DNA from: Allobaculum fili
Lineage (GTDB): Bacteria; Bacillota_I; Bacilli_A; Erysipelotrichales; Erysipelotrichaceae
Length of the DNA: 11,842 nt
Assembly: GCF_020969955.1 (NCBI RefSeq)
Contig: NZ_JAHDSX010000058.1
Coordinates: forward strand, 1-11,842
Direction: 5' to 3'
Position 1 is the first letter of the stretch. Each line of letters begins with the position of its first letter. Under the pieces are notes generated by a model. The model saw nothing but the letters and a program-made list of their open reading frames with translations, was not told where the DNA came from and searched no databases. Made by a program: the position numbers and the translations under genes. Shown one piece after another: positions 127-11,842 of the stretch.

Positions 127-1704
127 GTGGTCTACGACAATAAGCAGGCTTTCAGCCATCACGCAACGGATCCAGCAGGAAACGGGCATCTCCAGAACGC
201 ATACGACCTTGTAAGGCTGCACAAGTTCGGCGATGACAAAGAGTCCATCAAAAAAATGAACGAACTGGCGTCCAACGATCCGAGGGTCCGCAGAGAGATG
301 GATAAAAGCCTTTTCGAGGACTTTGGGGATATCGACCCGAGCGATGACGAATCGGACGAGTCCGAAACCATGACGGAAGAAGACATCGTTCAGGCCAATC
401 TTAGGTGGTCGGCCAATCTGGAAAGGGATGCGAAGACGCAGGCCATTCTGCCTACCGTCCGCAATCTCGAAATGATTTTGGCCAACGACACCCGAATCAA
501 AGACGGCATCGGCGGATATAACGAGTTTTCATGCAGGCACGAAAAGTTCGGATCGCTGCCGTGGAAAAAGTTTGACCCTAGAAATCCGGGATGGACAGAT
601 GCCGACGACGCTGGACTGCGAAGCTTCATAGAAAACAGCTACGGAATATGGCATCGGGCAAAACTTGAGGACGCCCTCAGCGTAGTTACTCAGCGCAGGC
701 GATTCCATCCAATCCGTGACTATCTCGATTCGCTTGAGTGGGATGGGGAGACCAGGATTGAAACCCTGCTTGTGGACTACATGGGCGCAGACGACAACGC
801 CTACGTCCGAGCCATCACACGGAAACACCTTGTAGCGGCGGTCGCCCGCATTTATCAGCCGGGCATCAAGTATGACTACGTGCTGGATCTGGTTGGAGAC
901 CAGGGCATCGGCAAGAGCCAGCTAATCGAACGGCTGGCCACAAAGCCGGAGTACTTCACCGACAGTATCCAGTTCGATCGCAAGAAGCTTGTCGAGAGCA
1001 CACAGGGCAAATGGCTCTGCGAGATCGGCGAAATGGCCGCAGCCAAAAAAGCCGATGAAGCGGACCTGAAGGCGGCTATCTCCGCCACGCAGGATACCGT
1101 CCGAATGGCCTACGCCAGAAACCCGCAGACCTTTTTGCGACAGTTCGTCCTGTGGGGATCGACTAACGAGGGAATCCACCTGAAAGACCAGACCGGAAAC
1201 AGACGCTTCTGGCCGGTGGACTGCCACCCTGAAAAACGCAAGCACAGCCCGTATGAACTGAAAAAAGAAGAGGTGGACCAGATATGGGCCGAAGCAAAAT
1301 CCTGCTGGGAAAAAGGCGAGAATCTGCACCTTTCCGAGGATCTCGAACAGATGGCCAAGGAAGCCCAGGAGGCGCACACCTTCGTATCAGAAGAAGAAGG
1401 TCTGATCACGGACTTTCTGGAGCGAAAAATCCCAAAGGGCTACTACGGGATGGACGAGAGCCATCGTCGGGACTGGTATCTCAACAACGACACCAACGAT
1501 ACAGAAGAACGAGGATTCGTCTGCGGAACAGAAGTATGGGTAGTCTGCCTGGGTCGTCGCAAAGAGGATTTCAACCGAGCGGAACAGATTCGCATAGGGA
1601 CGACGATCGCAAAGGCCGGATGGAAACGCGGCGAGAGGTCGCGGCAGGATGCGCTGTATGGGCGCCAGCGGTATTTCTGGCGGCAACCAAACGATCAAGT
1701 GTGA
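127..1704 (+). CDS. VirE-family (virulence-associated protein E / P4-type primase-helicase C-terminal) NTPase. It is probably the replicative helicase or origin-binding protein, and it appears to lack an N-terminal primase domain.
   Basis: The ORF is 525 aa. It has a Walker A motif LVGDQGIGKSQL, Walker B-like WLCEIGEM, and the GSTN...TGNRRFWPV block typical of the VirE/pfam05272 family. The only start is GTG127, immediately after in-frame TAA TGA (115-120), with no Shine-Dalgarno sequence. The stop is TGA at 1702-1704. Confidence 0.85.
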   Translation: MVYDNKQAFSHHATDPAGNGHLQNAYDLVRLHKFGDDKESIKKMNELASNDPRVRREMDKSLFEDFGDIDPSDDESDESETMTEEDIVQANLRWSANLERDAKTQAILPTVRNLEMILANDTRIKDGIGGYNEFSCRHEKFGSLPWKKFDPRNPGWTDADDAGLRSFIENSYGIWHRAKLEDALSVVTQRRRFHPIRDYLDSLEWDGETRIETLLVDYMGADDNAYVRAITRKHLVAAVARIYQPGIKYDYVLDLVGDQGIGKSQLIERLATKPEYFTDSIQFDRKKLVESTQGKWLCEIGEMAAAKKADEADLKAAISATQDTVRMAYARNPQTFLRQFVLWGSTNEGIHLKDQTGNRRFWPVDCHPEKRKHSPYELKKEEVDQIWAEAKSCWEKGENLHLSEDLEQMAKEAQEAHTFVSEEEGLITDFLERKIPKGYYGMDESHRRDWYLNNDTNDTEERGFVCGTEVWVVCLGRRKEDFNRAEQIRIGTTIAKAGWKRGERSRQDALYGRQRYFWRQPNDQV

Positions 1705-1715
1705 CCCCTCCAGTC

Positions 1716-2007
1716 TTGTCCCGGCTTTGTCCCGGCTTTGTCCCAGCTTTGTCCCGCTTAATTTTTCCTTTATCTACAGTCTATTCACAGTCTATGGGAC
1801 AAGTGGGACAAGGAAACAGACTAAAACTTTATTCAGACAGCTATAGAAAATATACAGGCCCTGATATAGGAGCTGAGACGTTTTTTGAAAATAGCGCATA
1901 GCCGTATAGGAAAAAACTTGTCCCACTGTCCCAGTTGTCCCAAAGCACCTAAAACGACGATATGTAAAGGGCTTTGCCCGGGACAAGGAGATGGGACAGG
2001 TTGTCCC
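1716..2007. repeat. Iteron array and putative origin of replication. There are 12 copies of TTGTCCC / GGGACAA in two clusters flanking an AT-rich core.
   Basis: Direct TTGTCCC copies start at 1716, 1727, 1738 and 1749, with exact 11-bp spacing. Inverted GGGACAA copies are at 1796-1802 and 1805-1811. The AT-rich spacer runs about 1812-1917. The second cluster has TTGTCCC at 1918-1924, TGTCCC at 1927-1932, TTGTCCC at 1935-1941, GGGACAA at 1980-1986, GGGACA at 1993-1998 and TTGTCCC at 2001-2007. In addition, ACAGTCTAT occurs twice (1776-1784 and 1787-1795), 11 bp apart. Confidence 0.75.
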
Positions 2008-2028
2008 GGCTTACAGGAGAAAAGAGAA

Positions 2029-2355
2029 ATGAACGAACTTGAAAGAGATGTTGAGCAGTATCTGGTTCGAAAAATCAAGGACGCCGGAGGGCTTTGCTGG
2101 AAATTCGTAAGTCCAGGCACTCGAGGCGTGCCGGATCGCTGGTGTGTTCTGGCCGGAAAGCAGTTCTTCGTAGAGCTCAAGAAGCCAAACGCCCGACGCA
2201 GATCAGACGAGAAGCTTCAGGCGCACAGAGCCGAGCAGATCAAAGAGCAAGGGCTTAAGGTCTACCGAATCGCATCCAAACCGGCTGTAGATCTGCTGCT
2301 TAAGTGGATCATCGCAGGACATCTGCCAAAGCCCGAGCGAATTGAAGTGCTATGA
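2029..2355 (+). CDS. VRR-NUC domain nuclease (PD-(D/E)xK fold)
   Basis: Translation begins MNELERDVEQYLVRKIKDAGG and contains GVPDRWCVLAGKQFFVELKKP, which is the GxPD...(E)xK motif of VRR-NUC. AGGAGA (2015-2020) lies 8 nt upstream of ATG2029. The longer track ORF from 1885 runs through the iterons and is not credible. The stop overlaps the next start (ATGA). Confidence 0.8.
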   Translation: MNELERDVEQYLVRKIKDAGGLCWKFVSPGTRGVPDRWCVLAGKQFFVELKKPNARRRSDEKLQAHRAEQIKEQGLKVYRIASKPAVDLLLKWIIAGHLPKPERIEVL

Positions 2356-3698
2356 CGGCCTTTAAGCCCCATCCCTACCAACAGCGGGGTGTCCGGTGGA
2401 TTCTTGACCATCCAAGCTGTGGGCTTTTTCTGCCGATGGGAGCCGGCAAGACCGCCACAACCCTGACAGCGGTTGAGTATCTGCTTCGCACAAGCTTTGA
2501 GTCATGGAAAGTTCTGGTGATCGGACCGAAGCGGGTCATTGAAACGACGTGGCCCGGCGAAATCCAGAAGTGGGACAACCTCGCCGGCCTGAGGATTTCC
2601 GTCATCGCAGGAACTCCAAAGAAACGAGAAGCGGCCGTCCATGCCGAAGCGGATATCTACCTGATCAGCAAGGAGAACGTTGTCTGGCTGGTGGATCTGA
2701 TCGGCAAAGACTGGCCGTGGGACACGGTTGTCATCGACGAATTATCGACATTTAAAAATCCCAAGTCCAAGCGTTTTCGGGCCTTGCGGAAGATGCTGCC
2801 GATGATCTCCAGACTGATCGGCCTGACCGGCACGCCATCACCCAAAGGCATCCCCGACCTGTGGAGTCAGATATACCTGATGGACAGGGGCGAACGGCTT
2901 GGCCGGACGCTTGGCGCCTTCCGAACGGCTTACCTCAAACCGGGGATGACCAGCGGACACGTTGTCTATAACTGGTCTGTCCAGCCTGGAGCCTCCGAGG
3001 TTATCCAGAAACGGATTTCCGATATCTGTATGTCGATCGATCAGGCCGAGTATGCGACCCTGCCAGACTGCCAGATGATTGATATCCCTGTAGATCTCGG
3101 ATCCGATCTGAAAAAATATCAGGCTTTCAAGAAAGAGCTGGTGCTGGATGTCGGAAGCGAAACCATTGCGGCGGACAGCGCCGGGGTGATGTGCGGCAAG
3201 CTGCTTCAATACACATCGGGAGCGATCTACGACGAGGACCACAATGTCCACGTCCTCCACAAGCACAAGCTTGAATCCCTCTTGGAGCTGATGGAGTCAG
3301 CCAACGGCCAGCCTGTGATGATCTTTTACTGGTACCAGCATGAGAAAGCCAGAATAGCGGAAGCGCTGAAGGGCTACAAAGGCATGGATGTCAAAGACAA
3401 GGGGGCCATCCAGAAATGGAATCGTGGTGATCTTGGTTATCTTCTGCTTCAGCCGTCATCAGCCGGCCACGGACTGAACCTTCAGAAAGGCGGACATATC
3501 GCCATCTGGTACAGCCTTCCAAACTGGAATCTTGAGCTGTATCAGCAGGCTAATGCCAGGATCTACAGGCAGGGACAGAAAGAAAAGGTCCTGATCTATC
3601 ACCTGATGGCAAAGGGGACAATCGATCAGGACATGCTGAAGGCTTTGAAATCGAAAGAGATAACGCAGAGGGATCTTCTGGATGCGCTGAGAATATGA
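2352..3698 (+). CDS. SNF2 / DEAD-like superfamily II helicase (phage replication/recombination helicase)
   Basis: The product is 448 aa. Motif I is LPMGAGKT, motif II is VVIDELSTF, motif III is LTGTPSP, and motif VI is QQANARIYRQGQ. The start is ATGA-coupled to the VRR-NUC gene. The VirE / VRR-NUC / SNF2 trio is a common phage replication module. Confidence 0.9.
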   Translation: MTAFKPHPYQQRGVRWILDHPSCGLFLPMGAGKTATTLTAVEYLLRTSFESWKVLVIGPKRVIETTWPGEIQKWDNLAGLRISVIAGTPKKREAAVHAEADIYLISKENVVWLVDLIGKDWPWDTVVIDELSTFKNPKSKRFRALRKMLPMISRLIGLTGTPSPKGIPDLWSQIYLMDRGERLGRTLGAFRTAYLKPGMTSGHVVYNWSVQPGASEVIQKRISDICMSIDQAEYATLPDCQMIDIPVDLGSDLKKYQAFKKELVLDVGSETIAADSAGVMCGKLLQYTSGAIYDEDHNVHVLHKHKLESLLELMESANGQPVMIFYWYQHEKARIAEALKGYKGMDVKDKGAIQKWNRGDLGYLLLQPSSAGHGLNLQKGGHIAIWYSLPNWNLELYQQANARIYRQGQKEKVLIYHLMAKGTIDQDMLKALKSKEITQRDLLDALRI

Positions 3699-3708
3699 GA
3701 GGAAAAAC

Positions 3709-3969
3709 ATGGCGACTCAACGAAGTTTTAATACCGAACCCCGACTGGAGATGTCATTCAAAGACAACTGCTGGGTGGCTTCATGCGCGGGCCACGAACT
3801 GAAACGATTTAAGAAGAAAGCGAACTGCTGTCTGTACCTTTTCGATTCCGCAAAAGATGATGTCAGTGAAATGGCGGCGGCACTCGGCATTCAGGCGAGG
3901 ACGCTAGTCCGACGATGGGATAAGGAGCTGAGAGAACGTGTCAAGGCGCAGGCGCAGGCGAAGATCTGA
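3709..3969 (+). CDS. Small hypothetical protein with a possible helix-turn-helix
   Basis: The product is 86 aa. GAGAGG lies 6 nt upstream of the ATG. The segment VSEMAAALGIQARTLVRRW resembles an HTH. No family was recognised. Confidence 0.55.
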   Translation: MATQRSFNTEPRLEMSFKDNCWVASCAGHELKRFKKKANCCLYLFDSAKDDVSEMAAALGIQARTLVRRWDKELRERVKAQAQAKI

Positions 3970-4183
3970 AGAGTTCTCACAGGGCTACCTTCTTGCTATG
4001 GCTCATGCCGTGATCCTGCTGCATAGATCCGGCTGGGGAAGCAAGAAGCGGCTTCCTGCTTTTGCGGATGAGATGCTGGACACACTCAACGACTGGCAGG
4101 ACGGCGGCCACGGCTATCGAGAGAGCATTAAAAAACTCGAAAGCCTGACAGGAATTCGAGTAGAGAAAGGGGCAGAAAGATGA
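3938..4183 (+). CDS. Small hypothetical protein with an ambiguous start
   Basis: GTG3938 is preceded by AAGGAG (3922-3927), but that start overlaps the previous gene by 32 nt and produces an MSRRRRRRRS N-terminus. The alternative start ATG3998 (MAHAVILLH...) has no SD. The stop overlaps the next start (ATGA at 4180-4183). Confidence 0.5.
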   Translation: MSRRRRRRRSEEFSQGYLLAMAHAVILLHRSGWGSKKRLPAFADEMLDTLNDWQDGGHGYRESIKKLESLTGIRVEKGAER

Positions 4184-4626
4184 GGGCATGTGAAGTGCGA
4201 GAGGTTAAGCGAAGGCTGGAGTCCTATCGAGATCTCCTGATCATGGCTAACGAAAAAGACAGGGAAGCGCTGATGCTTCAGGAGAAATACGAAAGCATGG
4301 CCACTCCTGGAGCAATCAGTTACAGTCACGAGCCAAGCGGATCCGGAAAGGCAAAGGAGTCTGTCTATCTTGAGATCTTCAGTGACCAGCTTGAGGCAGA
4401 GCGCAAAGCGGCGCAGTATCGCTTTGAGGCTGAGCAGATCAAGAAGTTCATTGATCAGATCGAGGATGAAGCAAAAGAGATCATGATCCGTGCATACATC
4501 AACGGCGAACGGTACTGGAAGATCGGAGAGAGCCTGAACTACTCGAAAGACGGCATCCGAAGCAAAATCGACCGCTGTCTTTCGCGAGTTCCGTCCTCTC
4601 TGGCAGAAGCAAGCGGTTTGATCTGA
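4180..4626 (+). CDS. Putative phage late-gene transcriptional regulator with a sigma-70 region-4-like HTH (ArpU / RinA / DUF1492 class)
   Basis: The product is 148 aa. The C-terminal IMIRAYINGERYWKIGESLNYSKDGIRSKIDRCL resembles a sigma region 4 HTH. Its position directly upstream of the packaging module is typical for RinA/ArpU-type activators. Confidence 0.6.
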   Translation: MRACEVREVKRRLESYRDLLIMANEKDREALMLQEKYESMATPGAISYSHEPSGSGKAKESVYLEIFSDQLEAERKAAQYRFEAEQIKKFIDQIEDEAKEIMIRAYINGERYWKIGESLNYSKDGIRSKIDRCLSRVPSSLAEASGLI

Positions 4627-4653
4627 CTTGCACGCAGGGGGCACGGTTTTACA

Positions 4654-4662
4654 TGCTAAAAT
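4654..4662 (+). promoter_or_regulatory. Candidate extended -10 promoter element (TGcTAAAAT) upstream of the tRNA genes
   Basis: TG (4654-4655), c, then TAAAAT (4657-4662) matches TGnTATAAT in 8 of 9 positions counting the N (7 of the 8 specified bases). There is no convincing -35 at 17-bp spacing. It lies about 43 nt upstream of tRNA-Ser. Confidence 0.3.
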
Positions 4663-4704
4663 GATAGTGTCGAAAGTCGTCCAGAAATGGGCGGCTTTTC
4701 TTTT

Positions 4705-4792
4705 GCCGGATTGGCTGAGTGGATTAAAGCAGCTGTCTTGAAAACAGAGGATCCGTAAGGGTCCGGGAGTTCGAATCTTCCATCCGGCGCCA
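4705..4792 (+). tRNA. tRNA-Ser (anticodon UGA), type II with a long variable arm and an encoded CCA
   Basis: A manual cloverleaf fits well. The acceptor is GCCGGAT/ATCCGGC (7 of 7 pairs). The D arm is GCT-GAGTGGATTAA-AGC. The anticodon arm is GCTGT-CTTGAAA-ACAGA, with U33, anticodon TGA and A37. The variable arm is GGATCCGTAAGGGTCC. The T arm is GGGAG-TTCGAAT-CTTCC. The discriminator is G, followed by CCA. The layout parallels E. coli tRNA-Ser(UGA). Confidence 0.9.
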
Positions 4793-4795
4793 TAT

Positions 4796-4863
4796 GGCGG
4801 CTAGTAGCTCAAGCGTAGAGCCCTCTGAGGGGAGATCCGGGTTCAAGTCCTGGCTTGCCGCCG
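4796..4863 (+). tRNA. Aberrant tRNA-like element or tRNA pseudogene. The acceptor, D and T arms are intact, the anticodon arm is collapsed, and no CCA is encoded.
   Basis: The acceptor is CGGCTAG/CTTGCCG (one T.T mismatch), extendable with GG/CC to 9 bp. TA is followed by a D arm GCTC-AAGCGTA-GAGC. The T arm is CCGGG-TTCAAGT-CCTGG. Only 15 nt (CCTCTGAGGGGAGAT, 4822-4836) occupy the space where about 23 nt are expected, so no 7-nt anticodon loop can be drawn. Confidence 0.45.
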
Positions 4864-4875
4864 TCTTCTGAAATG

Positions 4876-4970
4876 CGTATCCGAACCGTCCGATTTCTTT
4901 CTCTGATACCGCAGGCCCGAAGCGGCTGTGAACAATTTTTTCATGCAGTGACGGGATCGGGTACGTTTTT
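4876..4970 (+). promoter_or_regulatory. Structured leader upstream of terS. A long-range imperfect stem is followed by a T5 run, making it a candidate regulated terminator.
   Basis: CGTATCCGAACCGTC (4876-4890) pairs with GACGGGATCGGGTACG (4950-4965). The pairing is 9 bp including one G.U, then an A.A mismatch, 2 bp, a 1-nt bulge and 3 bp. It encloses 59 nt that contain an inner hairpin (4910-4930). TTTTT (4966-4970) follows immediately, and the terS RBS GGAGG is at 4980-4984. Confidence 0.35.
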
Positions 4971-4992
4971 GAGAAGAAAGGAGGTCTGAGAG

Positions 4993-5412
4993 ATGACTGA
5001 AAAACAGAAACAGTTCTGCGATGAATACTTAGCCAACGGTCTGAACGCCACTCAGGCCTACCTGGCTGTTTATAAGAACGTGAAGAGCGAAGATGCGGCT
5101 AGAACAAACGCGTCGAGACTGCTAACAAATGCTAACGTCCGTGAATACATCGACGTCGCCCTGGCAAAGATCCATGACGAGAAAACGATGGATGCCAAGG
5201 AGGTCATGGAGCGTCTGACGGCGATCGGGCGCGAAGAAACAACGGATCAGCTGCTGACGATGGATGGCGATGTTAAAGAGGTCAAATCCAAAACGCAGGA
5301 TCGGATCCGGGCGCTTGAACTGATCGGCAAAGCCTACGGCATGTTCAAGGACAAAGTCGAAATGGAAGTCGCTACGCCTGTCTTTGCAGGAGAAAGCGAT
5401 CTTGAAGACTGA
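4993..5412 (+). CDS. terS: Terminase small subunit (Terminase_2 / P27 family)
   Basis: The N-terminus MTEKQKQFCDEYLANGLNATQAYLAVYKNVKSEDAARTNASRLLTNANVREYI is the hallmark of the phage TerS pfam03592 family. A strong RBS AAAGGAGG lies 8 nt upstream. The gene sits directly upstream of terL. Confidence 0.92.
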   Translation: MTEKQKQFCDEYLANGLNATQAYLAVYKNVKSEDAARTNASRLLTNANVREYIDVALAKIHDEKTMDAKEVMERLTAIGREETTDQLLTMDGDVKEVKSKTQDRIRALELIGKAYGMFKDKVEMEVATPVFAGESDLED

Positions 5413-6652
5413 GAAGATCTACCTGCCGGACATTGTCGGAAAAGGCTATAAGACGTTCTGGAATTTCAAAGGTCGCTACCGGGTTGTCAAAGGCAGCCGA
5501 GCGTCCAAGAAGTCCAAGACGACGGCGCTCTGGTTCATCTACAACCTGATGAAGTATCCCGGATCCAACCTGCTGGTTGTCCGCAAGACGTACAGAACGC
5601 TCAAAGACAGCTGTTTTACGGATCTGCAGTGGGCCTGTCAGCGTCTGAAGTGCTCCCGCTTCTGGGAATTCAAGCTGTCGCCTCTGGAGGCCACATACAA
5701 GCCTACCGGGCAGAAGATTCTTTTCCGTGGCCTGGACGATCCGCTGAAGGTTACGTCGATCACAGTGCCTGTCGGATCTCTTTGCTGGGGATGGATCGAG
5801 GAAGCGTATGAGCTGACCAGCGAAGAAGATTTCAGCACGCTGGATGAGTCGATCCGAGGCGAACTGCCTGACGGACTCTGGAAGCAATGGACGATAACAT
5901 TCAACCCGTGGAACGAACACCATTGGCTTAAAAAGCGCTTCTTTGACGCGCCTGAGAGCGAAAACATCCTTGCCCTTACCACAAACTACCTCTGCAACGA
6001 ATGGCTGGATCAGAGCGATTTGGAGCTCTTTGAGGACATGAAAAAGCGCAACCCGAGGCGCTATGAAGTTGCTGGCCTTGGCAACTGGGGAATCGTGGAT
6101 GGTCTTGTTTATGAGAACTTCCACATTCGGGAATTCGAGATTACCGACATTGGAGACGCAGTCACCGTAAGCGGTCTGGACTTTGGTTTTACCAACGATC
6201 CAACCGCTTTTTTCGTGGGCTTCGCTGACAAGGCAAATCGAAAACTCTGGGTGTGGGATGAGATCTACGAAAAGGGCATGACCAACAGCCGGATCTATGA
6301 GCGGATCGAGGCTCTGGGGTATCGCAAGAACAGGATCATTGCCGACTGCGCAGATGCGAAGTCAATCTATGAACTGGCCAGAATGGGCCTGAAAATCAAT
6401 GGATCAAGAAAAGGCGCCGACTCCATACGAGCCGGCGTTCAGTTTATCCAGGACTACGAGATCATCATCAAGCCGCGCTGTGTGAACTTCATCACGGAGA
6501 TTCAGAACTACCAGTGGGCCAAGGACAAATTCGGCAGCTCGATCAACAAGCCGATCGATGATTTTAACCATTTGATGGACGCCATGCGCTATGCCATGGA
6601 GCCCATACAGCGCGGATCTGTGAAGGTTCGCTCGATCAAAGGAGGATTCTAA
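5402..6652 (+). CDS. terL: Terminase large subunit (PBSX / Terminase_3-type ATPase-nuclease)
   Basis: The Walker A-like motif is VVKGSRASKKSKT, and WGWIEEAYE is Walker B-like. The C-terminal nuclease block is GLDFGFTNDPTA...DDFNHLMDAMRYA. I prefer TTG5402 as the start, because AGGAGA (5388-5393) lies 8 nt upstream. The track start TTG5384 has no SD. The gene overlaps the terS stop. Confidence 0.9.
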   Translation: MKTEKIYLPDIVGKGYKTFWNFKGRYRVVKGSRASKKSKTTALWFIYNLMKYPGSNLLVVRKTYRTLKDSCFTDLQWACQRLKCSRFWEFKLSPLEATYKPTGQKILFRGLDDPLKVTSITVPVGSLCWGWIEEAYELTSEEDFSTLDESIRGELPDGLWKQWTITFNPWNEHHWLKKRFFDAPESENILALTTNYLCNEWLDQSDLELFEDMKKRNPRRYEVAGLGNWGIVDGLVYENFHIREFEITDIGDAVTVSGLDFGFTNDPTAFFVGFADKANRKLWVWDEIYEKGMTNSRIYERIEALGYRKNRIIADCADAKSIYELARMGLKINGSRKGADSIRAGVQFIQDYEIIIKPRCVNFITEIQNYQWAKDKFGSSINKPIDDFNHLMDAMRYAMEPIQRGSVKVRSIKGGF

Positions 6653-8041
6653 ATGAGTACCAAACGACCATACCAGCTTCCGGAACCTCTGATTTGCGAG
6701 ACGGATGTGAACCTTGACTATGCATTGGTCAAGCGGTTTATCGACAAGCACGCCAGCCGAATGCAGCGTTACAAGTATCTTGAAGAAATGTACAAAGGTT
6801 TCCACAGCATCTATCAGCAGCCAGATAAGCCGGACTGGAAGCCCGATAACCGGCTGGCGATCAATTACCCGCGCTACATCACAGAAACGTTTCTGGGATA
6901 CGCCTACGGCATTCCAATCAAGGAAAGCCATCCAGATGATACGGTAGCCGAAGCCATGCGCGAATTTCAGAACGAAAATGAACTGTCTGATCATGAATAC
7001 GAGCTCTTTCAGGATGTCTGCATTTATGGCCATGCTTTCGAGTACCTCTACCAGGACGAGGAAGCAAAGACCAGAATGACAGTCTGCACGCCGAAGGAGC
7101 TTTTTATCGTTTACGACGATACAGTCCGAAACAGAGCCTTGTTTGCGGTTCGCTATGCCGTTCATGAGATTGAAGGCAGCCAGGGCGAGCTTTTTGGCGA
7201 AGTGCTGACCAGAGACCAGATCATCCGCTTCGACAAAGGGAACTTTACTGAGACGCTCGACAATCCATACGGACTGATTCCGGTTGTCGAGTATCTGATG
7301 AACCGTCAGCGCCTTGGTCTGTATGAGAACGTCACCGGCCTGATCGAAGCCTATAACCGGGCAATCGGTGAAAAAGCCAACGACGTTGACGCTTTTGCAG
7401 AAGCCTATATGAAGCTGATCGGCGTGGACATCGACGATGAGGAAGTGAAGCGAATCCGTGAAAACCGGATCATCAATCTGCCAGTATATGGCGATACGAC
7501 GGGCACGCAGGTTGATTTCATGGCCAAGCCGACAGCTGACTCCACGCAGGAAAACCTGCTGGACCGTCTGGATCGGCAGATCTACCAGATCTCGATGGTG
7601 GCCAACATCAGCGATGAATCGTTTGGCAACGCAACCAGCGGAACCGCCCTGGCTTACAAGCTTCAAGCCATGAGCAATCTGGCCAGCGGTTTTGACCGCA
7701 AGATCGAAAAAAGCCTGCGCAAGCGCTACAAGATCTGGTCAACGCTTAAAACGAACGTGAGCGATGAGAACGCATGGAAGGAACTGCAGGTAACAACAAG
7801 CCGCAACCTTCCCAAGAATCGCCTGGAAGAGGCACAGACAGCCGCACAGCTGTCCGGCATCGTCTCCCATGAAACACAGCTCTCATTACTCTCGATCGTG
7901 TCGGATCCGAAGGCAGAGCTTGAGAAAATCGAACAGGAACAGGAGCCTCAGCCGCTCATGGACTTCGATTCTCACCCGTCTGTAACCTCGAAAGAGGAAG
8001 GCAGCCTGGAAGAGCCGGAGGGCGGCTATGGCCTCCAGTAA
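6653..8041 (+). CDS. Portal protein (SPP1 gp6-like family)
   Basis: The product is 462 aa. GGAGG lies 7 nt upstream. It follows terL immediately, and its N-terminal region (FIDKHASRMQRYKYLEEMYKG...NRLAINYPRYITETFLGY) is typical of SPP1-type portals. The C-terminal tail is acidic. Confidence 0.88.
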   Translation: MSTKRPYQLPEPLICETDVNLDYALVKRFIDKHASRMQRYKYLEEMYKGFHSIYQQPDKPDWKPDNRLAINYPRYITETFLGYAYGIPIKESHPDDTVAEAMREFQNENELSDHEYELFQDVCIYGHAFEYLYQDEEAKTRMTVCTPKELFIVYDDTVRNRALFAVRYAVHEIEGSQGELFGEVLTRDQIIRFDKGNFTETLDNPYGLIPVVEYLMNRQRLGLYENVTGLIEAYNRAIGEKANDVDAFAEAYMKLIGVDIDDEEVKRIRENRIINLPVYGDTTGTQVDFMAKPTADSTQENLLDRLDRQIYQISMVANISDESFGNATSGTALAYKLQAMSNLASGFDRKIEKSLRKRYKIWSTLKTNVSDENAWKELQVTTSRNLPKNRLEEAQTAAQLSGIVSHETQLSLLSIVSDPKAELEKIEQEQEPQPLMDFDSHPSVTSKEEGSLEEPEGGYGLQ

Positions 8042-9554
8042 GTACTGGTCGGAGCGTGAGGCGGACTGGACGAAGGAGTGCCAGGCAAACAATGTGCAGT
8101 GGGATCAGGAGCTGCAGGACATCTATCAGACGATGAGCGATGAAATCAGTGAACAGATTGCGGTGTTCTTTCAGAAGTACGCGGATGAAAACGGCCTGAC
8201 CTATGCCCAGGCGAAACAGTATCTGGATCGGACCGATATCAGCTACTATTCCCGTCTGGCCAAACGCTACTGTGAAGATGCAGCCAAAGACATGGCAGCG
8301 GGAACGTGGGCGCATGACGCAGCGAAAAGCTACTTCACGCAGCAGGCCAATCAAGAAATGAAGCGCTACAACACCGCCATGAAGATTGCCCGTCTGGATA
8401 TGCTCAAGCGCCAGATCAGCCTGCGGATTGCCAACGCCCAGCGCAAAGCCTGCAGCGTCGTTGAGGACGCTCTCAATGACCGCATCCTGCAGACCTACAC
8501 AAGACAGGCCGGCATTCTGGGCGATACGGTACTTACCAACCTGAAGCACGTAAGCACCATCGCTCACGCGTCCTTCCATGGAGCGACCTTCTCCGATCGG
8601 ATCTGGGGCACCCAGCAGGCGAAACTAAAAAAAGTCCTGAACAAAGCGCTTCAGGACTGTTTGATTCTGGGAAAGGGTGCGGCACCGTTCACTAGAGAGC
8701 TAAAAAAGGCAACGGGGAAAACAACCCGAGAGTGCCAGAGGCTCATTTCGACGGAGCTGAGCCGGGTAAGAGTTCAGGCATCCCTGGATTCTTTTAAGGC
8801 CTGTGGATTCGATGAGTTCCAAATCATTGCCAATCCAGACTGCTGCAAAGAATGCCAGGCAATCAACGGGGAGCACTTCCCGCTGCCAAAACTGGCATCA
8901 GGCGAGAACGCCCCGCCGATGCATCCAAACTGCCGCTGCTCCATTGCCCCGTATGAAGCCAGAGACGAAGACGGCGATAAGGACTTTGATGAGGCTGCGT
9001 TCGATGAATGGTGCGACTACATGGAGAAGCATGAGGATGACCCGAATGCGATGACATGGGAAGAGTGGAAGAGCAGAAACCGTGGTATTGAACAAGAGCG
9101 TCCTATGGCTAACGGAGCGAGACGAAGTAATACTTATATTCTCTCTGAAAAGGAAATTGAGTTTATTAAAGGAGAGGCCGAAAACATTGGCATTCCACTT
9201 GATATATTGAGCTTTAATGAGGGAAACGTAACCGGTGTAAATGAGGTTATGGGATTGATCAGAATTAGAGGAGACGTTTTACCGGACAAAAGTTCAAATA
9301 ACAATAGGGATTTGTTATCTGTGCGGGCTGTACTTGCTCACGAATATTATGGCCATTTTAAACACATCCCCTCTGAATATCCGATTGGAGATTGGAGGGA
9401 TGAGTTCAGAGCTAGTTATGAAGCGGCATTAAATGCTCCGAATTTATCCGATGAAGACCGATCTAGACTTATAATAGATGCATATGAAAGGCAGAAAGAA
9501 GCAGGTGAGTTTAATGGCTACAGCGAAGAAGCAAAGCGAATTCTCTTTGGATGA
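8028..9554 (+). CDS. Head morphogenesis / minor capsid protein (Phage_Mu_F, SPP1 gp7 family) fused to a roughly 150-aa low-GC C-terminal domain of unknown function
   Basis: The MuF signature is NPDCCKECQAINGEHFPLP...APPMHPNCRCSIAPY (about aa 265-315). An acidic linker follows. From about nt 9125 (aa ~366) the composition drops to about 35-38% GC, and the sequence contains LAHEYYGHFKH. GGAGG lies 6 nt upstream of ATG8028, which overlaps the portal gene end. Confidence 0.85.
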   Translation: MASSKYWSEREADWTKECQANNVQWDQELQDIYQTMSDEISEQIAVFFQKYADENGLTYAQAKQYLDRTDISYYSRLAKRYCEDAAKDMAAGTWAHDAAKSYFTQQANQEMKRYNTAMKIARLDMLKRQISLRIANAQRKACSVVEDALNDRILQTYTRQAGILGDTVLTNLKHVSTIAHASFHGATFSDRIWGTQQAKLKKVLNKALQDCLILGKGAAPFTRELKKATGKTTRECQRLISTELSRVRVQASLDSFKACGFDEFQIIANPDCCKECQAINGEHFPLPKLASGENAPPMHPNCRCSIAPYEARDEDGDKDFDEAAFDEWCDYMEKHEDDPNAMTWEEWKSRNRGIEQERPMANGARRSNTYILSEKEIEFIKGEAENIGIPLDILSFNEGNVTGVNEVMGLIRIRGDVLPDKSSNNNRDLLSVRAVLAHEYYGHFKHIPSEYPIGDWRDEFRASYEAALNAPNLSDEDRSRLIIDAYERQKEAGEFNGYSEEAKRILFG

Positions 9555-9708
9555 GAAAAAAGCATTGACTTATAAACTTGATCACCCGGAGGAAAAAGTT
9601 GTTTGCCCAAGATGTGGAAAACTGTTGACGTATAAACGGATCGGCAAAAGCTCTGAAGCTCGCTGTGAAACAGAAGGCTGCATTCATGGAAGCGTGAGAG
9701 GAATATGA
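9514..9708 (+). CDS. Small zinc-ribbon protein (CxxC-x16-C-x4-C). It is the first gene downstream of the MuF C-terminal domain and a candidate cognate immunity or partner protein.
   Basis: The product is 64 aa from ATG9514, with AGGTGA 5 nt upstream. It contains CPRCGKLLTYKRIGKSSEARCETEGC. It overlaps the MuF 3' end by 41 nt. The track start at 9478 is also in frame but lacks an RBS. Confidence 0.5.
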   Translation: MATAKKQSEFSLDEKKALTYKLDHPEEKVVCPRCGKLLTYKRIGKSSEARCETEGCIHGSVRGI

Positions 9709-9711
9709 ACT

Positions 9712-9739
9712 GAGATGCCATAACAGGCTCTTTGTTTTT
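9712..9739 (+). terminator. Intrinsic terminator (junction module J1)
   Basis: The stem is AGA(T)GCC / GGCTCT with a 1-nt bulge, and the loop is ATAACA. It is followed by TTTGTTTTT. The sequence TAACAGGCTCTTT (9721-9733) is identical to 10111-10123. Confidence 0.6.
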
Positions 9740-9757
9740 CCAGAAAGGGAACTTAAC

Positions 9758-10090
9758 ATGCCAAAAGATGATTACAACAGAATTTTATTCTTGATCCTGT
9801 ACGGTTTGTATGATGACCTGAGAAAAGGCAAACGGACTCAGCTAGATGAAATTTCGCCATCTGCTTTAGGAATCAGCGAATCGTATTGGCTGTCTGTGAT
9901 TGAAGATGCAGTCAATGACGGGTTCGTTAAAGGGCCAACTTTCAAGACTACCAAATTCGGTCGAGTACCCAAAGATCTTGAAGAGATGACCATCACCCGC
10001 GATGGTGTGACCTTTCTCACAGAGAATTCGAAAATGAAAAAAGTGTATGAAGTCCTGAAAGAAACGAGAGATTGGCTTCCAATTTTTTAG
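9758..10090 (+). CDS. YjcQ-like small winged-helix protein (prophage-associated family)
   Basis: The product is 110 aa. The pattern (ILFLILYGLYD...LGISESYWLSVIEDAVNDGFVKG...ITRDGVTFLTENSKMKKVYE) matches my recollection of the YjcQ/pfam09639 family. There is a weak SD (GGGA) 7 nt upstream. The region is low in GC. Confidence 0.55.
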   Translation: MPKDDYNRILFLILYGLYDDLRKGKRTQLDEISPSALGISESYWLSVIEDAVNDGFVKGPTFKTTKFGRVPKDLEEMTITRDGVTFLTENSKMKKVYEVLKETRDWLPIF

Positions 10091-10099
10091 CGAATAGTG

Positions 10100-10130
10100 A
10101 AAAGAGCCGCTAACAGGCTCTTTTTTGTTT
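10100..10130 (+). terminator. Intrinsic terminator (junction module J2)
   Basis: The stem is AAAAGAGCC (10100-10108) / GGCTCTTTT (10116-10124), the loop is GCTAACA, and a T-run follows to 10126 and then GTTT. Flanking A- and T-runs could allow bidirectional function. Confidence 0.7.
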
Positions 10131-10141
10131 GGAGGAATGAA

Positions 10142-10309
10142 ATGACGAAAGAAAAAGAAGAACAAATTTTCAATGAACTGAAAGGCATCTCTTATCTCGA
10201 TTGGGAAAAGGTTAAACGGATTATTGATATAGCCTTTCAAATGAAAATAAAAAGTGTCACGAAGACCGTGACACTCGATAGCTTTGATGCGGCAAAGAGT
10301 GAGATGTAG
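10142..10309 (+). CDS. Small hypothetical protein (55 aa)
   Basis: ATG10142 lies 6 nt after GGAGG (10131-10135). The product is MTKEKEEQIFNELKGISYLDWEKVKRIIDIAFQMKIKSVTKTVTLDSFDAAKSEM. The track start at 10097 would span the J2 terminator hairpin. The region is about 30% GC. Confidence 0.5.
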   Translation: MTKEKEEQIFNELKGISYLDWEKVKRIIDIAFQMKIKSVTKTVTLDSFDAAKSEM

Positions 10310-10312
10310 AAA

Positions 10313-10573
10313 CTACTCTTCTACGATTTGGATAAAAATAGGATTGATTCTATAGGACTTCCCCTGGTAATGAATCCAGATATAATCAAGCTCGGTAAAG
10401 GTATCATTTTTAGAGGAGTCCTTTTTTGTCCATATCTCAGCGCCTTCTTCCAACCAGATATAAGGGCTTTGCCGGTATTCGCCCATAAGACATTCTTTAT
10501 CTGCAGATAAATTAACCCAATGTCCTAATAAGCATGCGTACACATTTTTCACACACTTCTCCTTTCTAGCCAT
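10313..10573 (-). CDS. Hypothetical protein on the opposite strand (86 aa from the ATG, or 94 aa from TTG10597)
   Basis: This is the only credible minus-strand ORF in the window. It converges on the 55-aa gene, with stops 3 nt apart, around the hairpin GTAGAA-ACTACTC-TTCTAC (10306-10324). Neither start has an SD. TACAAT lies 6 nt upstream of ATG10573, so a leaderless mRNA is possible. No family was recognised. Confidence 0.4.
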   Translation of the reverse strand: MARKEKCVKNVYACLLGHWVNLSADKECLMGEYRQSPYIWLEEGAEIWTKKDSSKNDTFTELDYIWIHYQGKSYRINPIFIQIVEE

Positions 10574-10589
10574 AAGAGAATTGTATACC

Positions 10590-10611
10590 CGTCTCAATCG
10601 AGGCGTTTTTT
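10590..10611 (+). terminator. Intrinsic terminator (junction module J3)
   Basis: The stem is CGTCTC (10590-10595) / GAGGCG (10600-10605) with one G.U pair, the loop is AATC, and TTTTTT (10606-10611) follows. Confidence 0.6.
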
Positions 10612-10626
10612 GTTTGGAGGAATGAA

Positions 10627-10791
10627 ATGACTGACGTAATCGTGCTGACCGATGCGGATAAGATTTTCGGTAATATTCTGACCGGGATTATGCTCACATT
10701 CACAGTGTTTCTGCTGGTCGGCTTCATCTGCATTGGACTGAAAGTGCTGTGGAAGTTTTTCAAAATGCTCTGGGAGGATCTTAACGAATGA
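10627..10791 (+). CDS. Small single-pass membrane protein (54 aa). It is below the ORF-track length cutoff.
   Basis: ATG10627 lies 6 nt after GGAGG (10616-10620). The product is MTDVIVLTDADKIFGNILTGIMLTFTVFLLVGFICIGLKVLWKFFKMLWEDLNE, with a hydrophobic helix of about 20 residues. Its stop, TGA10789-10791, overlaps the ATG10788 start of the Prp-like gene (ATGA coupling). Confidence 0.55.
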   Translation: MTDVIVLTDADKIFGNILTGIMLTFTVFLLVGFICIGLKVLWKFFKMLWEDLNE

Positions 10792-11090
10792 TCATGATCG
10801 ACACAGATCTGAAGACAGACATTCAGATTAAAGGCCATGCAGGCTATGCACCGGCCGGATCCGATATCGTCTGTGCGGCTGTCTCGATTTTATATGAGAC
10901 GCTGAAAAGAATGCTTCGACCGGGACTGGATGGAACCGTAATAGAAGACGAAAACGGGATCAGAATTGAAATCAATCCGGATCTGGGCACCTGGGGAAGA
11001 GTTTCCCTGAATTACTTCATTACCGGGATTCAGATGCTGGAGAGGGAGTACCCCAAACATGTTCAACTGAAGATTGGGCGAGCGAATTAA
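10788..11090 (+). CDS. prp: Prp-like cysteine protease (ribosomal-processing cysteine protease / DUF464 family). It is the predicted phage-encoded capsid and scaffold propeptide protease.
   Basis: The product is 100 aa. The hallmark IKGHAGYAPAGSDIVCAAVS carries the His...Cys catalytic dyad spacing of Prp. The gene lies directly upstream of a scaffold gene and a capsid gene that both begin with L27-like LQRFA propeptides. Confidence 0.8.
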   Translation: MIMIDTDLKTDIQIKGHAGYAPAGSDIVCAAVSILYETLKRMLRPGLDGTVIEDENGIRIEINPDLGTWGRVSLNYFITGIQMLEREYPKHVQLKIGRAN

Positions 11091-11101
11091 GCTCGCTTTT
11101 T
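11078..11101 (+). terminator. Intrinsic terminator overlapping the stop codon of the prp-like gene
   Basis: The stem is GCGAGC (11078-11083) / GCTCGC (11091-11096), the loop is GAATTAA (containing the TAA stop), and TTTTT (11097-11101) follows. Confidence 0.65.
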
Positions 11102-11179
11102 CTATGCCCAGGCAGGGACGGCATTAAAAGCTCTGGAAGGATCGTCCGACATGACGTTAAACCGGGGGGAATAAAGGAA

Positions 11180-11752
11180 ATGGAAAAACTGAATCTTCAG
11201 CGTTTCGCTGATGAAGCAGAAAACGCCCAGGCGCCAGACCAGGGCAAACCGGCGGAAGAGACTAAAGATCCTTCTGCCGCAAAATACTCAGACGCAGATC
11301 TGGACAAGATCATCAGCGCCAAGTTCGCCAAGTGGGCAGCCGATCGGGATAAAGCCGTAGAGGACGCCCGCAAGGAAGGCGAAAAGCTGGCCAAGATGAA
11401 TGCCGACCAGAAGAAAGCGTATGAGCTGGAACAGGCTCAAAAAGAGGCCCAGAGCCTCAAAGAACAGGTGGCCAAACTGGAGCAGGCACAGAAGCAGGCA
11501 GAGCTGAGAAAGAGCGCTGCAGAGATCTTTTCCCAGAACTACAAGCTGACCGTCACAAACGATGTTCTGGATTTCGTTGTCGGTAAAGATGCCGAAGAAA
11601 CCAATGCGAATATTCAGAAGATGGCGGCACTGCTCCAGGCAGAAAGACAGGCAGGCGAAAAGGCAAGAGCGACTGGATCTACGCCTTTTGGAACATCCAT
11701 CAATCACGAGCCCGCCAGTCCGTTCCAGAAGAAACTGGACAAATGGAAATAG
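11180..11752 (+). CDS. Capsid scaffolding protein (GP20/DUF4355-like coiled-coil) with an N-terminal Prp-cleavage propeptide
   Basis: The product is 190 aa. It is Ala/Glu/Lys/Gln-rich with predicted coiled-coil character (KEAQSLKEQVAKLEQAQKQAELRK). The N-terminus is MEKLNLQRFA|DEA. It sits between the protease and capsid genes. Confidence 0.8.
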   Translation: MEKLNLQRFADEAENAQAPDQGKPAEETKDPSAAKYSDADLDKIISAKFAKWAADRDKAVEDARKEGEKLAKMNADQKKAYELEQAQKEAQSLKEQVAKLEQAQKQAELRKSAAEIFSQNYKLTVTNDVLDFVVGKDAEETNANIQKMAALLQAERQAGEKARATGSTPFGTSINHEPASPFQKKLDKWK

Positions 11753-11760
11753 GAGGAACC

Positions 11761-11842
11761 ATGAACGAATTTAAACTTCAGCGCTTTGCGGAAGGTGATG
11801 GAACTAGTACGACAACCACACCGACAGGCGCAAACAATGAAA
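11761..11842 (+). CDS. Major capsid protein, 5' end only (truncated by the window edge)
   Basis: GGAGG lies 4 nt upstream (11753-11757, spacer AACC). The product begins MNEFKLQRFA|EGDGTSTTTTPTGANNE, with an L27-like propeptide. The position after the scaffold gene is canonical. Only 27 codons are visible. Confidence 0.65.
   Translation, partial: MNEFKLQRFAEGDGTSTTTTPTGANNE

Follow-up and report, generated by a model that had tools for sequence, protein, structure and literature searches.

The locus and its composition

The DNA analysed herein (the window) is a stretch of 11,842 nucleotides (nt), positions 1 to 11,842 of contig NZ_JAHDSX010000058.1 (RefSeq assembly GCF_020969955.1) of Allobaculum fili (Erysipelotrichaceae). 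It carries packaging and head genes of an Allobaculum-type siphophage or prophage and, between the conserved core of its MuF minor head protein gene and its Prp-family protease gene, a low-GC stretch that we read, with a probability of roughly three in four, as a mosaic composed of a MuF toxin cassette (9079-9720), a YjcQ-family gene and a cargo slot. The features on which this reading turns are given below (aa, amino acids; ORF, open reading frame).

8028-9554, plus strand: MuF gene, its start overlapping the end of the portal gene
8028-9078, plus strand: MuF core (SPP1 gp7-like minor head protein, the conserved carrier part); PF04233 E 2e-11, TIGR01641
9054-9071, plus strand: junction motif T-W-E-E-W-K, MuF aa 343-348
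9079-9554, plus strand: MuF C-terminal domain, aa ~351-508 (158 aa), with HEYYGH at 9339-9356 and DEFRASY at 9399-9419
9514-9708, plus strand: Zn-ribbon gene Zn64, 64 aa, best start ATG 9514; weak zinc-ribbon matches only
9721-9739, plus strand: right border of the toxin cassette, degraded boundary hairpin TAACAGGCTCTTTGTTTTT
9758-10090, plus strand: YjcQ-family winged-helix protein, 110 aa; PF09639 E 1e-20, phrog_3675
10099-10129, plus strand: intrinsic-terminator hairpin after YjcQ, AAAAGAGCC-N7-GGCTCTTTT and a T-run
10121-10146, plus strand: first copy of the 26-nt repeat TTTTTTGTTTGGAGGAATGAAATGAC, the translation start region of the 55-aa ORF
10142-10309, plus strand: 55-aa ORF; no family match
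10252-10276, minus strand: terminator within the 3' part of the 55-aa ORF, 11-bp stem and T-run
10313-10552, minus strand: 79-aa gene; phrog_3240 E 1.3e-29
10590-10631, plus strand: weak hairpin (10590-10605) and second copy of the 26-nt repeat (10606-10631), the junction upstream of TM54
10627-10791, plus strand: TM54, a 54-aa single-pass membrane protein; no family match
10788-11090, plus strand: Prp-family cysteine protease; PF04327 E 1.7e-15; the right flank, outside the variable region

Measured in 300-bp sliding windows, GC content runs at 0.52-0.57 before ~9050, falls to 0.36-0.42 as far as ~10750 and then recovers. The GC content of 9079-10791 is 0.404, against a mean of 0.525 in 148 backbone windows of equal length (standard deviation 0.0098, minimum 0.506), a deficit of ~12 standard deviations, and a maximum-likelihood fit with two breakpoints places the low-GC segment at 9126-10830 (log-likelihood ratio 44.9). 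GC content at third codon positions (GC3) is 0.60-0.68 in the VapE, SNF2, TerS, TerL and portal genes and in the MuF core, and 0.32-0.44 in the MuF C-terminal domain, Zn64, YjcQ, the 55-aa ORF and the minus-strand gene; TM54, at 0.62, is like the backbone. The change falls within the MuF gene itself, where the core has a GC content of 0.545 and a GC3 of 0.67, and the C-terminal domain 0.403 and 0.32.

An earlier note on this DNA had described such a low-GC stretch, and the GC and GC3 analysis bears it out. Its hand counts (18/60 at 10201-10260 and 30/60 at 10681-10740) were identical on recounting; the drop that it put at 30-38% is real, and that range is slightly low, the mean being 40% and 60-bp windows running from 30% to 50%. 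ORF calls and family searches confirm its gene inventory, and its single opposite-strand gene is likewise upheld, as each of the other long minus-strand ORFs in the window lies within plus-strand genes and has no family match.

Separately exchanged modules

The nearest MuF proteins (558-578 aa) come from Allobaculum genomes and from mouse-gut-type metagenomes and are 93-96% identical to that of the window at ~70% query cover; with those of Allobaculum prophages, the identity is 94-96% and extends over aa 1-350 only. Distant MuF proteins (from Dorea and other Lachnospiraceae) are ~43% identical and align end to end. A search of cultured-phage DNA with 6653-11842 returned only a 65-70-nt match to the scaffold gene in Lacticaseibacillus phages, and thus no close isolate, and single-sequence searches of viral and genome contigs for loci with the MuF core gave no match. 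In what follows, L-numbers denote genomic loci of relatives, P-numbers their proteins, and CT1 to CT4 mutually unrelated C-terminal types.

Seven phages of one lineage, with backbones ~86-96% identical in DNA, carry at least six gene sets between the MuF core and Prp. The contents of this gap, in order, are:

Window: CT1, Zn64, YjcQ, 55 aa, 79 aa (minus strand), TM54
L002: CT1, Zn64, YjcQ, N6-methyltransferase, 50 aa, 56 aa
L001: CT2, 74 aa, YjcQ, methyltransferase, 55 aa, 56 aa
L079: CT2, 74 aa, methyltransferase, 55 aa, 84 aa
L010 and L080: CT3, 76 aa, TM54, 81 aa
L081: CT4, 61 aa, YjcQ, 55 aa, 79 aa (minus strand), TM54, 84 aa

DNA homology to the window breaks off and resumes at the following positions:

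L001 and L079: 93-96% to 9078; in L001 resumes at 9722 (YjcQ), and in both in short junction pieces and then from 10782-10787
L080: 92% to 9092; resumes in junction pieces and TM54
L081: 89% to 9012; resumes over 9721-10791 at 92.6%, both 26-nt repeats included
L002 and L003: 93-98% through 10124, with the same C-terminus; L002 resumes at 10782, and L003 ends inside the methyltransferase gene

At 10782-10787, where Prp begins, homology to all siblings resumes. On the left, 12 MuF proteins of the lineage, when aligned, are common up to (T/S)WE(E/D)WK and unrelated beyond it, with at least six C-terminal families on cores 70-96% identical, each family accompanied by its own small downstream gene (of 74, 76, 61 or 49 aa). 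Since the siblings diverge right after TWEEWK, this motif marks the recombination border of the toxin cassette. Further, the window itself is a recombinant: its left module (the C-terminal domain, Zn64 and YjcQ) matches L002/L003, and the 55-aa ORF, the minus-strand gene and TM54, which make up its right module, match L081.

The stretch thus consists of at least three modules exchanged independently at conserved junctions and not of one island, and the positions of the breakpoints suggest that the exchange probably occurred by recombination at conserved junction sequences. Low GC content is seen in each sibling's own version of the gap, including the unrelated C-terminal cassettes, and therefore belongs to the exchangeable gene pool rather than to one transfer event. 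That these are conserved head-accessory genes was considered and rejected, as the genes differ between siblings.

Two observations on the lineage stand apart from this comparison. A decayed copy of the same prophage lineage (L008/L009) lies in Allobaculum mucilyticum (CP078089.1, ~318.7-330.4 kb), where IS66-family genes stand in place of the terminase region, a DDE transposase is nearby and the MuF gene is followed only by a fragment of 180 aa with homology to the N-terminal end of the methyltransferase. The CT2 domain of P0002 (L001:6001-7677) has a borderline RadC-like JAB match (E 1.9e-4, 21.8 bits against a cut-off of 22.1) and is 26-34% identical to the C-termini of P0018, P0019 and P0021; CT2 may represent a second metallopeptidase-like toxin family in the lineage.

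The HExxGH domain

A profile search of 1.84 billion cluster representatives (50% identity) with the MuF C-terminal domain of the window returned 638 proteins, mostly from gut and rumen Bacillota, and in all of them the domain is C-terminal. Its carriers comprise MuF1 (PF04233), MuF2 (PF06152, the class so named by Jamet et al., PMC5576092), VG15 and unrecognised proteins, stand-alone forms and a PT-TG-like region. In 19 diverse homologs, the motif AHEYYGH and, ~12 residues on, W.DEFRASY are invariant. A predicted helix at residues 76-90 of the domain carries HEYYGH, and the next helix (100-113) carries D102-E103 of DEFRASY. The AlphaFold (AF2) model of the domain is alpha/beta, with a predicted local distance difference test (pLDDT) score of 90.8 and a predicted template modelling score (pTM) of 0.87; its order of helix, three-stranded sheet, HEYYGH helix and DEFRASY helix is a zincin-like order of elements. 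A profile search of the PDB with the domain gave no relevant match.

The zinc site of peptidase family M49 is made up of HEXXGH and an EEXR(K)AE(D) motif further downstream (PMC5667867), and a metal-binding role for the HEYYGH and acidic downstream motifs of the window is therefore plausible. We predict the domain to be a metal-dependent hydrolase, probably a peptidase, that we assign to no peptidase family, with H438, E439, H443 and E459 as candidate catalytic residues.

Some relatives depart from this simple architecture. An 841-aa MuF2 protein (PF06152; L051:1934-4456) has an extra internal HEMGH region before its terminal HExxGH domain, a small "polyvalent" architecture. The short HExxGH proteins P0130 and P0165 begin with the motif YNHNHD(S/P)K(N)GRF followed by a Gly/Ser linker, and this N-terminal region may be a different packaging or carrier signal. 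In a distant phage, a 100-aa ORF with a metallopeptidase-like HEIMH motif (L006:6199-6501) lies between the Zn-ribbon gene and Prp.

The Zn-ribbon partner and its linkage

The start of Zn64 overlaps the 3' end of the MuF gene by 41 nt. The family to which its product belongs has a conserved CPxCG...C...C pattern (CPRCG...C..C in the window), and its members invariably end in R-G-(I/L/F) (RGI in the window). Linkage of the two is all but absolute: a Zn-ribbon homolog abuts the domain in all 65 viral loci with readable downstream sequence (65/65; 39 distinct sequences) and in 72 of the 74 evaluable bacterial loci, with one homolog match per locus. As to the two bacterial misses, L146 is an ORF-boundary artefact, and in L137 the Zn-ribbon gene lies 2.5 kb past a truncated domain. 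The latter locus (Lachnospiraceae bacterium 10-1, KE159819.1, ~3456-6012), in which the domain is truncated at profile position ~137, suggests a cassette split by an insertion.

The Zn-ribbon gene co-varies with the C-terminal domain, not with MuF. Siblings with other C-termini have no Zn-ribbon homolog and carry unrelated small ORFs instead. L004 (from Dorea) and L006 have MuF cores only 42-45% identical to that of the window, yet an overlapping gene for a 58-aa Zn64 homolog (40-53% identical, E 1e-16) follows. Across loci, pairwise identities of the domain correlate with those of the Zn-ribbon protein at r = 0.81 and with those of the carrier at r = 0.42; 49 locus pairs have cassettes >60% identical on carriers <25% identical, and L035 and L064 have carriers 98% identical with cassettes only 42% and 36% identical. 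Zn64 is the cognate partner of the domain and its predicted immunity protein.

Apparent second Zn-ribbon hits in L021-L033, considered as orphan Zn-ribbons, were rejected as a different ORF (CPKCG...CKCKHC). This ~65-70-aa ORF lies directly after the cognate Zn-ribbon gene in L021-L033 and L044 (e.g., L022:4648-4860), all in one MuF2 phage group. The Zn-ribbon family is too divergent for an orphan-gene search designed on its pattern.

The cassette outside phages

The cassette also occurs in a chromosomal polymorphic-toxin array of Cohnella panacarvi Gsoil 349 (L161; NZ_KI911563.1, ~2.824-2.831 Mb; L161:1-4406). The array opens with DUF6985, a pre-toxin region joined to Endonuclea_NS_2 (E 2e-39) and a YezG-like immunity protein (E 2e-47); a second copy of that pre-toxin region, 91% identical to the first over 139 aa, comes next, joined to the HExxGH domain and followed by a 71-aa Zn-ribbon gene; and a truncated, divergent copy of the domain (HEIVGH...DEAQASI) and an 89-aa ORF close the order. 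In Cohnella, the Zn-ribbon gene thus sits in the immunity position of a textbook polymorphic-toxin array. The toxin ORFs of L161 (309 aa and 348 aa) are without an obvious secretion domain and may belong, as orphan modules, to a larger toxin gene beyond the fetched stretch.

A second such context is found in a metagenome-assembled genome of Turicibacter sp. from termite gut, where a stand-alone 157-aa domain lies between two 64-aa Zn-ribbon paralogs (L134:2342-3634), the upstream one of which has no domain in front. The neighbours there encode retropepsin-like, cupin and leucine-rich repeat proteins and no phage proteins; upstream, a pair formed by a 79-aa ORF and a retropepsin-like aspartyl-protease ORF is present in three copies. 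Together with the published definition of MuF toxins, the Cohnella and Turicibacter contexts place the cassette of the window among the MuF polymorphic toxins.

YjcQ, the cargo slot and their junctions

The YjcQ protein matches PF09639 at 74.2 bits (cut-off 23.3) over profile positions 2-95 of 95. Among the siblings, YjcQ accompanies CT1, CT2 and CT4, in two alleles ~80% identical that assort independently, and is absent from L079, L010 and L080; it also lies directly after the Zn-ribbon gene in at least eight distant loci (L046, L047, L049, L103, L107, L112, L118 and L119). Found with several C-terminal types, YjcQ is therefore common in the gap whatever the toxin type. A literature search found no published YjcQ function.

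Short junction sequences separate these units. At the right border of the toxin cassette, homology to L001/L081 resumes at 9721/9722; the sequence there folds weakly (-10.2 kcal/mol), and 9721-9739 forms a direct repeat (D3) with 10111-10129. The hairpin after YjcQ is stronger (-14.6 kcal/mol, z -3.1); its form, GAGCC-N6/7-GGCTC and a T-run, is also found after the 74-aa gene and YjcQ of L001, the YjcQ of L002 and the 76-aa gene of L010, and Zn64 has a degraded copy after it. L002/L003 remain colinear with the window as far as 10124 and then carry an N6_Mtase instead. The exact 26-nt repeat TTTTTTGTTTGGAGGAATGAAATGAC, which comprises a T-run, a ribosome-binding site, and ATG with two further bases, precedes both the 55-aa ORF and TM54 (chance expectation ~2e-8); both copies are kept in L081, and close variants precede small genes upstream of Prp in L001, L010 and L080. 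The junction at 10590-10631 is 85-86% identical to those before the pre-Prp small genes at L001 9927-9984 (56-aa) and L079 8539-8599 (84-aa). The cargo slot is accordingly ~10124-10600, bounded by the conserved terminator hairpin and the duplicated 26-nt start junction.

The 55-aa ORF shares 43% identity over 54 aa with its 55-aa counterparts in L001/L079 (E 3e-16) and is 100% identical in L081, a conservation of the protein among siblings that marks it as a real gene. TM54 has counterparts 76-91% identical in L010, L080 and L081, shares 39% identity with the 50-aa ORF of L002, and is a conserved resident just upstream of Prp that is not tied to toxin type.

The minus-strand gene most likely starts at GTG 10552 (AAGGAG-N6-GTG), which gives 79 aa, and its homologs are all 78-81 aa. 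The window and L081 have this gene, and L001, L002, L079, L010 and L080 lack it, the methyltransferase showing the converse pattern; relative to L001, it fills precisely the interval from the 55-aa stop codon to the weak hairpin before the second repeat. Its terminator (10276-10252) folds at -14.9 kcal/mol (z -4.8), as well as which none of the shuffles fold (0/200), and lies inside the convergent 55-aa coding sequence, so that the two transcripts would have overlapping 3' ends. A search upstream of 10552 gave no sigma-70-type promoter. In temperate phages of Staphylococcus (Phietavirus) and Streptococcus, phrog_3240 lies between cro and the antirepressor gene, where it is also counter-oriented to its neighbours, in the direction of cI and the integrase gene. 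The AF2 model of phrog_3240 is a small beta-barrel (pLDDT 83.8) with weak SH3-like matches only and no functional lead. Its features are consistent with a moron-like insert. In a 98%-identical sibling, the cargo slot is occupied by an N6-adenine methyltransferase, a typical phage self-protection cargo.

PADLOC and NCBIfam scans gave no match for any small ORF. A comparison of cassette-to-scaffold gaps anchored 12 of 99 loci by insensitive ad-hoc profiles (median 163 nt, against 1080 nt in the window) and gives no basis for a quantitative claim.

These results bear unevenly on what the earlier note had made of the small genes. Its accessory hotspot is supported, since the lineage carries at least six gene sets here rather than the same genes in all relatives; the hotspot of unrelated genes stands, and the single island does not, as the breakpoints divide it into at least three separately exchanged modules. 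The idea that each gene has its own terminator fits the strong hairpins after YjcQ, the minus-strand gene and Prp, and fails for the weak ones after Zn64 and before TM54. A moron is a fair description of the phrog_3240 gene by its presence and absence, orientation and terminator, with no promoter detected, and anti-defence cargo applies to the N6-methyltransferase of the siblings, the alternative occupant of the right-hand slot. Finally, immunity proteins for the MuF-linked domain were among the suggested roles, which the linkage and the Cohnella position favour for the Zn-ribbon gene only and not for the other small ORFs, which are not tied to toxin type; YjcQ, the 55-aa ORF and TM54 were each considered as immunity proteins and rejected, being found with several toxin types.

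The surrounding genes

The remaining recognisable genes of the window are:

127-1704: VapE-like primase/helicase-type protein
2352-3698: SNF2-family helicase
4180-4626: DUF1492 protein, a borderline match, directly before terS
5384-6652: TerL (Terminase_3)
6653-8041: portal protein, SPP1-type (PF05133)
11180-11752: scaffold protein (DUF4355)

The part upstream of the packaging genes (127-4626) is the end of the phage replication/late-regulation region. On the right, the phage's own Prp-family cysteine protease gene lies directly upstream of the scaffold gene (10788-11752), and the parallel of Staphylococcus phage 80alpha suggests a Prp-dependent N-terminal processing of scaffold or capsid proteins. 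No integrase gene or attachment site lies within the window; close relatives sit in large bacterial contigs (474 kb, and the 3.14-Mb chromosome of A. mucilyticum), and in L080 an integrase gene adjoins terS.

A proposed mechanism and its alternatives

On these observations we infer capsid delivery, enzymatic activity and neutralisation, as well as any roles for the small cargo genes. Specifically, the cassette would have been grafted onto the conserved MuF just after TWEEWK. The MuF protein SPP1 gp7 is portal-bound, at one or two copies per capsid (PMC5576092), and domains fused to MuF have been proposed to enter the host with the DNA (Jamet et al., PMC5576092; Iyer et al., PMC5512222); the MuF of the window, likewise portal-associated and in few copies per capsid, would carry the domain into the capsid, from which it would pass into the next cell along with the DNA. 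Its activity there would be that of a Zn-dependent hydrolase, probably a peptidase, with a target in the cytoplasm. The Zn-ribbon protein, presumably made in translational coupling with the domain, would bind and neutralise it in the producing or lysogenic cell, possibly via its invariant C-terminal R-G-(I/L/F) tail.

Several points weigh against this reading. A Pfam search of the C-terminal ~150 aa at E <= 10 found nothing but a spurious helix-turn-helix match, and the motif is HExxxH (HExxGH) rather than the canonical zincin HExxH. Foldseek found nothing significant for the domain in the PDB, the best match being an ArdC metalloprotease domain (E 2.3), or in BFVD, the best being an uncharacterised crAss-like phage protein (E 0.096), with further weak BFVD matches to an IrrE N-terminal-like protein (E 0.52) and a "PolyVal" metallopeptidase (E 1.9); with no significant neighbour in either database despite a high-confidence model, we assign the domain neither to the zincins nor to M49. 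In Cohnella, the Pfam match to PT-TG is below the gathering threshold (20.0 against 23.5 bits). The evidence that the domain and the Zn-ribbon protein would interact is genomic throughout, and a promoter search found none for the Zn-ribbon gene or the minus-strand gene, so that the expression in the lysogen that an immunity or moron role needs is unsupported. Lastly, a lethal toxin in the phage's own future host is hard to square with productive infection, and the domain may thus be a host-takeover or anti-defence effector and not a toxin.

The first alternative to consider is that the Zn-ribbon protein is not an antidote and serves the domain as an obligate helper, such as a chaperone for folding or metal loading, a subunit that confers specificity or a capsid-loading factor. 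A strict 1:1 linkage of overlapping, translationally coupled genes would fit an obligate partner equally well, as would the failure to find a promoter for separate expression of the Zn-ribbon gene in the lysogen. However, in Cohnella this gene occupies the slot that matches the YezG-like immunity gene of the neighbouring cassette; the additional Zn-ribbon paralog in L134, without an upstream domain, is of a kind often seen with immunity genes; the linkage holds in stand-alone, non-capsid contexts, which makes a capsid-loading role unlikely; and a small ORF after the toxin is the rule for MuF toxins (PMC5576092). We therefore hold a helper to be unlikely, and an immunity protein remains our preferred reading of Zn64.

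A second possibility is that the whole 1.7-kb stretch is a single block from one low-GC donor, inherited as a unit. The uniformly low GC and GC3 from 9079 to ~10600 would be expected of such a block, and the gaps of the siblings are also low in GC; but their unrelated C-terminal cassettes are equally low, the two YjcQ alleles assort independently, and the breakpoints subdivide the stretch into a left part that matches L002/L003 to 10124 and a right part that matches L081, in which the cassette is a different one. A single donor block is, in our estimate, very improbable. Least credible of all is that the HExxGH domain serves in cis as a peptidase for head maturation or self-processing, with the small genes as ordinary head-assembly accessories, given that siblings with 94-96% identical head genes bear unrelated domains, which renders the domain dispensable for capsid assembly, that the PHROG matches (among them phrog_115, E 1.5e-86 over aa 1-358) are confined to the MuF core, aa 1-~358, and that the domain and the Zn-ribbon gene also occur in non-phage loci and stand alone, even though phrog_595, which matches the MuF protein, is annotated "head maturation protease", the locus lies within the morphogenesis operon adjoining Prp and the scaffold gene, and the zincin-like peptidases of phage polyvalent proteins have been proposed to process polyproteins (PMC5512222).

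Beyond the mosaic of toxin cassette, YjcQ and cargo slot, a bolder and tentative proposal, to which we give somewhat less than an even chance, is that the domain represents a compact (~150 aa) kind of metal-dependent hydrolase toxin, a family so far undescribed, with a zinc site more like that of M49 than that of the classical zincins; that the carboxylate of the RG(I/L/F) end of its Zn-ribbon immunity protein would plug the active site; and that the cassette is common to capsid-delivered MuF proteins of phages and secretion-type polymorphic toxins of Bacillota. If this were true, the phage would inject a protease into each gut bacterium that it newly infects.

The class of MuF polymorphic toxins (PMC5576092) and the ordinary phage mosaic hotspot are already known. 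New here are the family formed by the HExxGH domain and the Zn-ribbon RG(I/L/F) protein, which is absent from Pfam, PADLOC, NCBIfam and the literature searched; the mobility of this cassette, demonstrated by its presence on phage carriers of the MuF1 and MuF2 types and in a chromosomal toxin array; and a fine-scale junction map in one phage lineage. MuF toxins are abundant in gut phages, but experimental work covers only a few, namely the ADP-ribosyltransferase and RelA/Apk types. A natural comparison set for MuF-borne domains is provided by sibling prophages whose main difference is the cassette, and the cargo slot, holding either the methyltransferase or phrog_3240, is a small, well-defined example of the shuffling of accessory genes within a head operon.

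Comparison with known systems

The closest likeness is to the MuF polymorphic toxins described by Jamet et al. (2017, BMC Biol 15:75, PMC5576092), such as the EFV ADP-ribosyltransferase-MuF of E. faecalis V583 and MuF-RelA/Apk. Common to these and the window are a MuF domain right after the portal gene, a C-terminus that varies between near-identical phages, a small ORF (<150 aa) directly downstream that changes with the domain, hosts among the gut Bacillota, and use of the domain by a non-phage polymorphic-toxin system as well (here in Cohnella). Unlike the known MuF toxins, the domain of the window has no Pfam model, Tox-MPTase and the other peptidase families included, and carries HExxGH instead of HExxH, and it is paired with a Zn-ribbon protein whose C-terminal RG(I/L/F) is invariant. 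The supplementary files of that study yielded no matches to peptidase terms (PMC5576092), and our literature searches found no description of the HExxGH domain/Zn-ribbon pair.

The HExxGH domain and Zn-ribbon gene of Cohnella form one cassette of an LXG / PT-TG array, of which B. subtilis YeeF-YezG is an example. The window differs from such arrays in that the delivery module is a phage head protein, with no secretion domain, and in that there are no orphan cassettes. As in polyvalent proteins and other injected effectors (Iyer et al. 2017, PMC5512222) and in T4 Alt, a protein inside the virion bears a fused enzymatic domain that is predicted to enter the host with the DNA, and in this class no domain is more common than the zincin-like peptidases. 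Polyvalent proteins, however, have 2-15 domains, against two in the protein of the window, which also has a predicted neutralising partner gene, a feature typical of toxin systems.

With M49 (dipeptidyl peptidase III), the domain shares the hexapeptide HEXXGH, and DEFRAS in the window and EEXR(K)AE(D) in M49 are both an acidic-Glu-x-Arg-Ala motif, which could supply a third zinc ligand. However, M49 enzymes have ~700 aa in two domains, five conserved regions and a spacing of 22-55 aa, against ~150 aa and a spacing of 15 aa in the domain of the window. Spacing and size rule out membership of M49, to which there is no Pfam or Foldseek match, and the likeness is at the level of the motif only and probably convergent.

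The phrog_3240 gene, lastly, is like the morons and mosaic boundaries of the Hendrix/Juhala concept in its presence and absence, counter-orientation, strong terminator and atypical composition. Unlike the usual morons, which lie at the ends of the late region, it occupies a slot inside the head operon, and, as at mosaic boundaries, short conserved junctions flank the units that are exchanged in the window.

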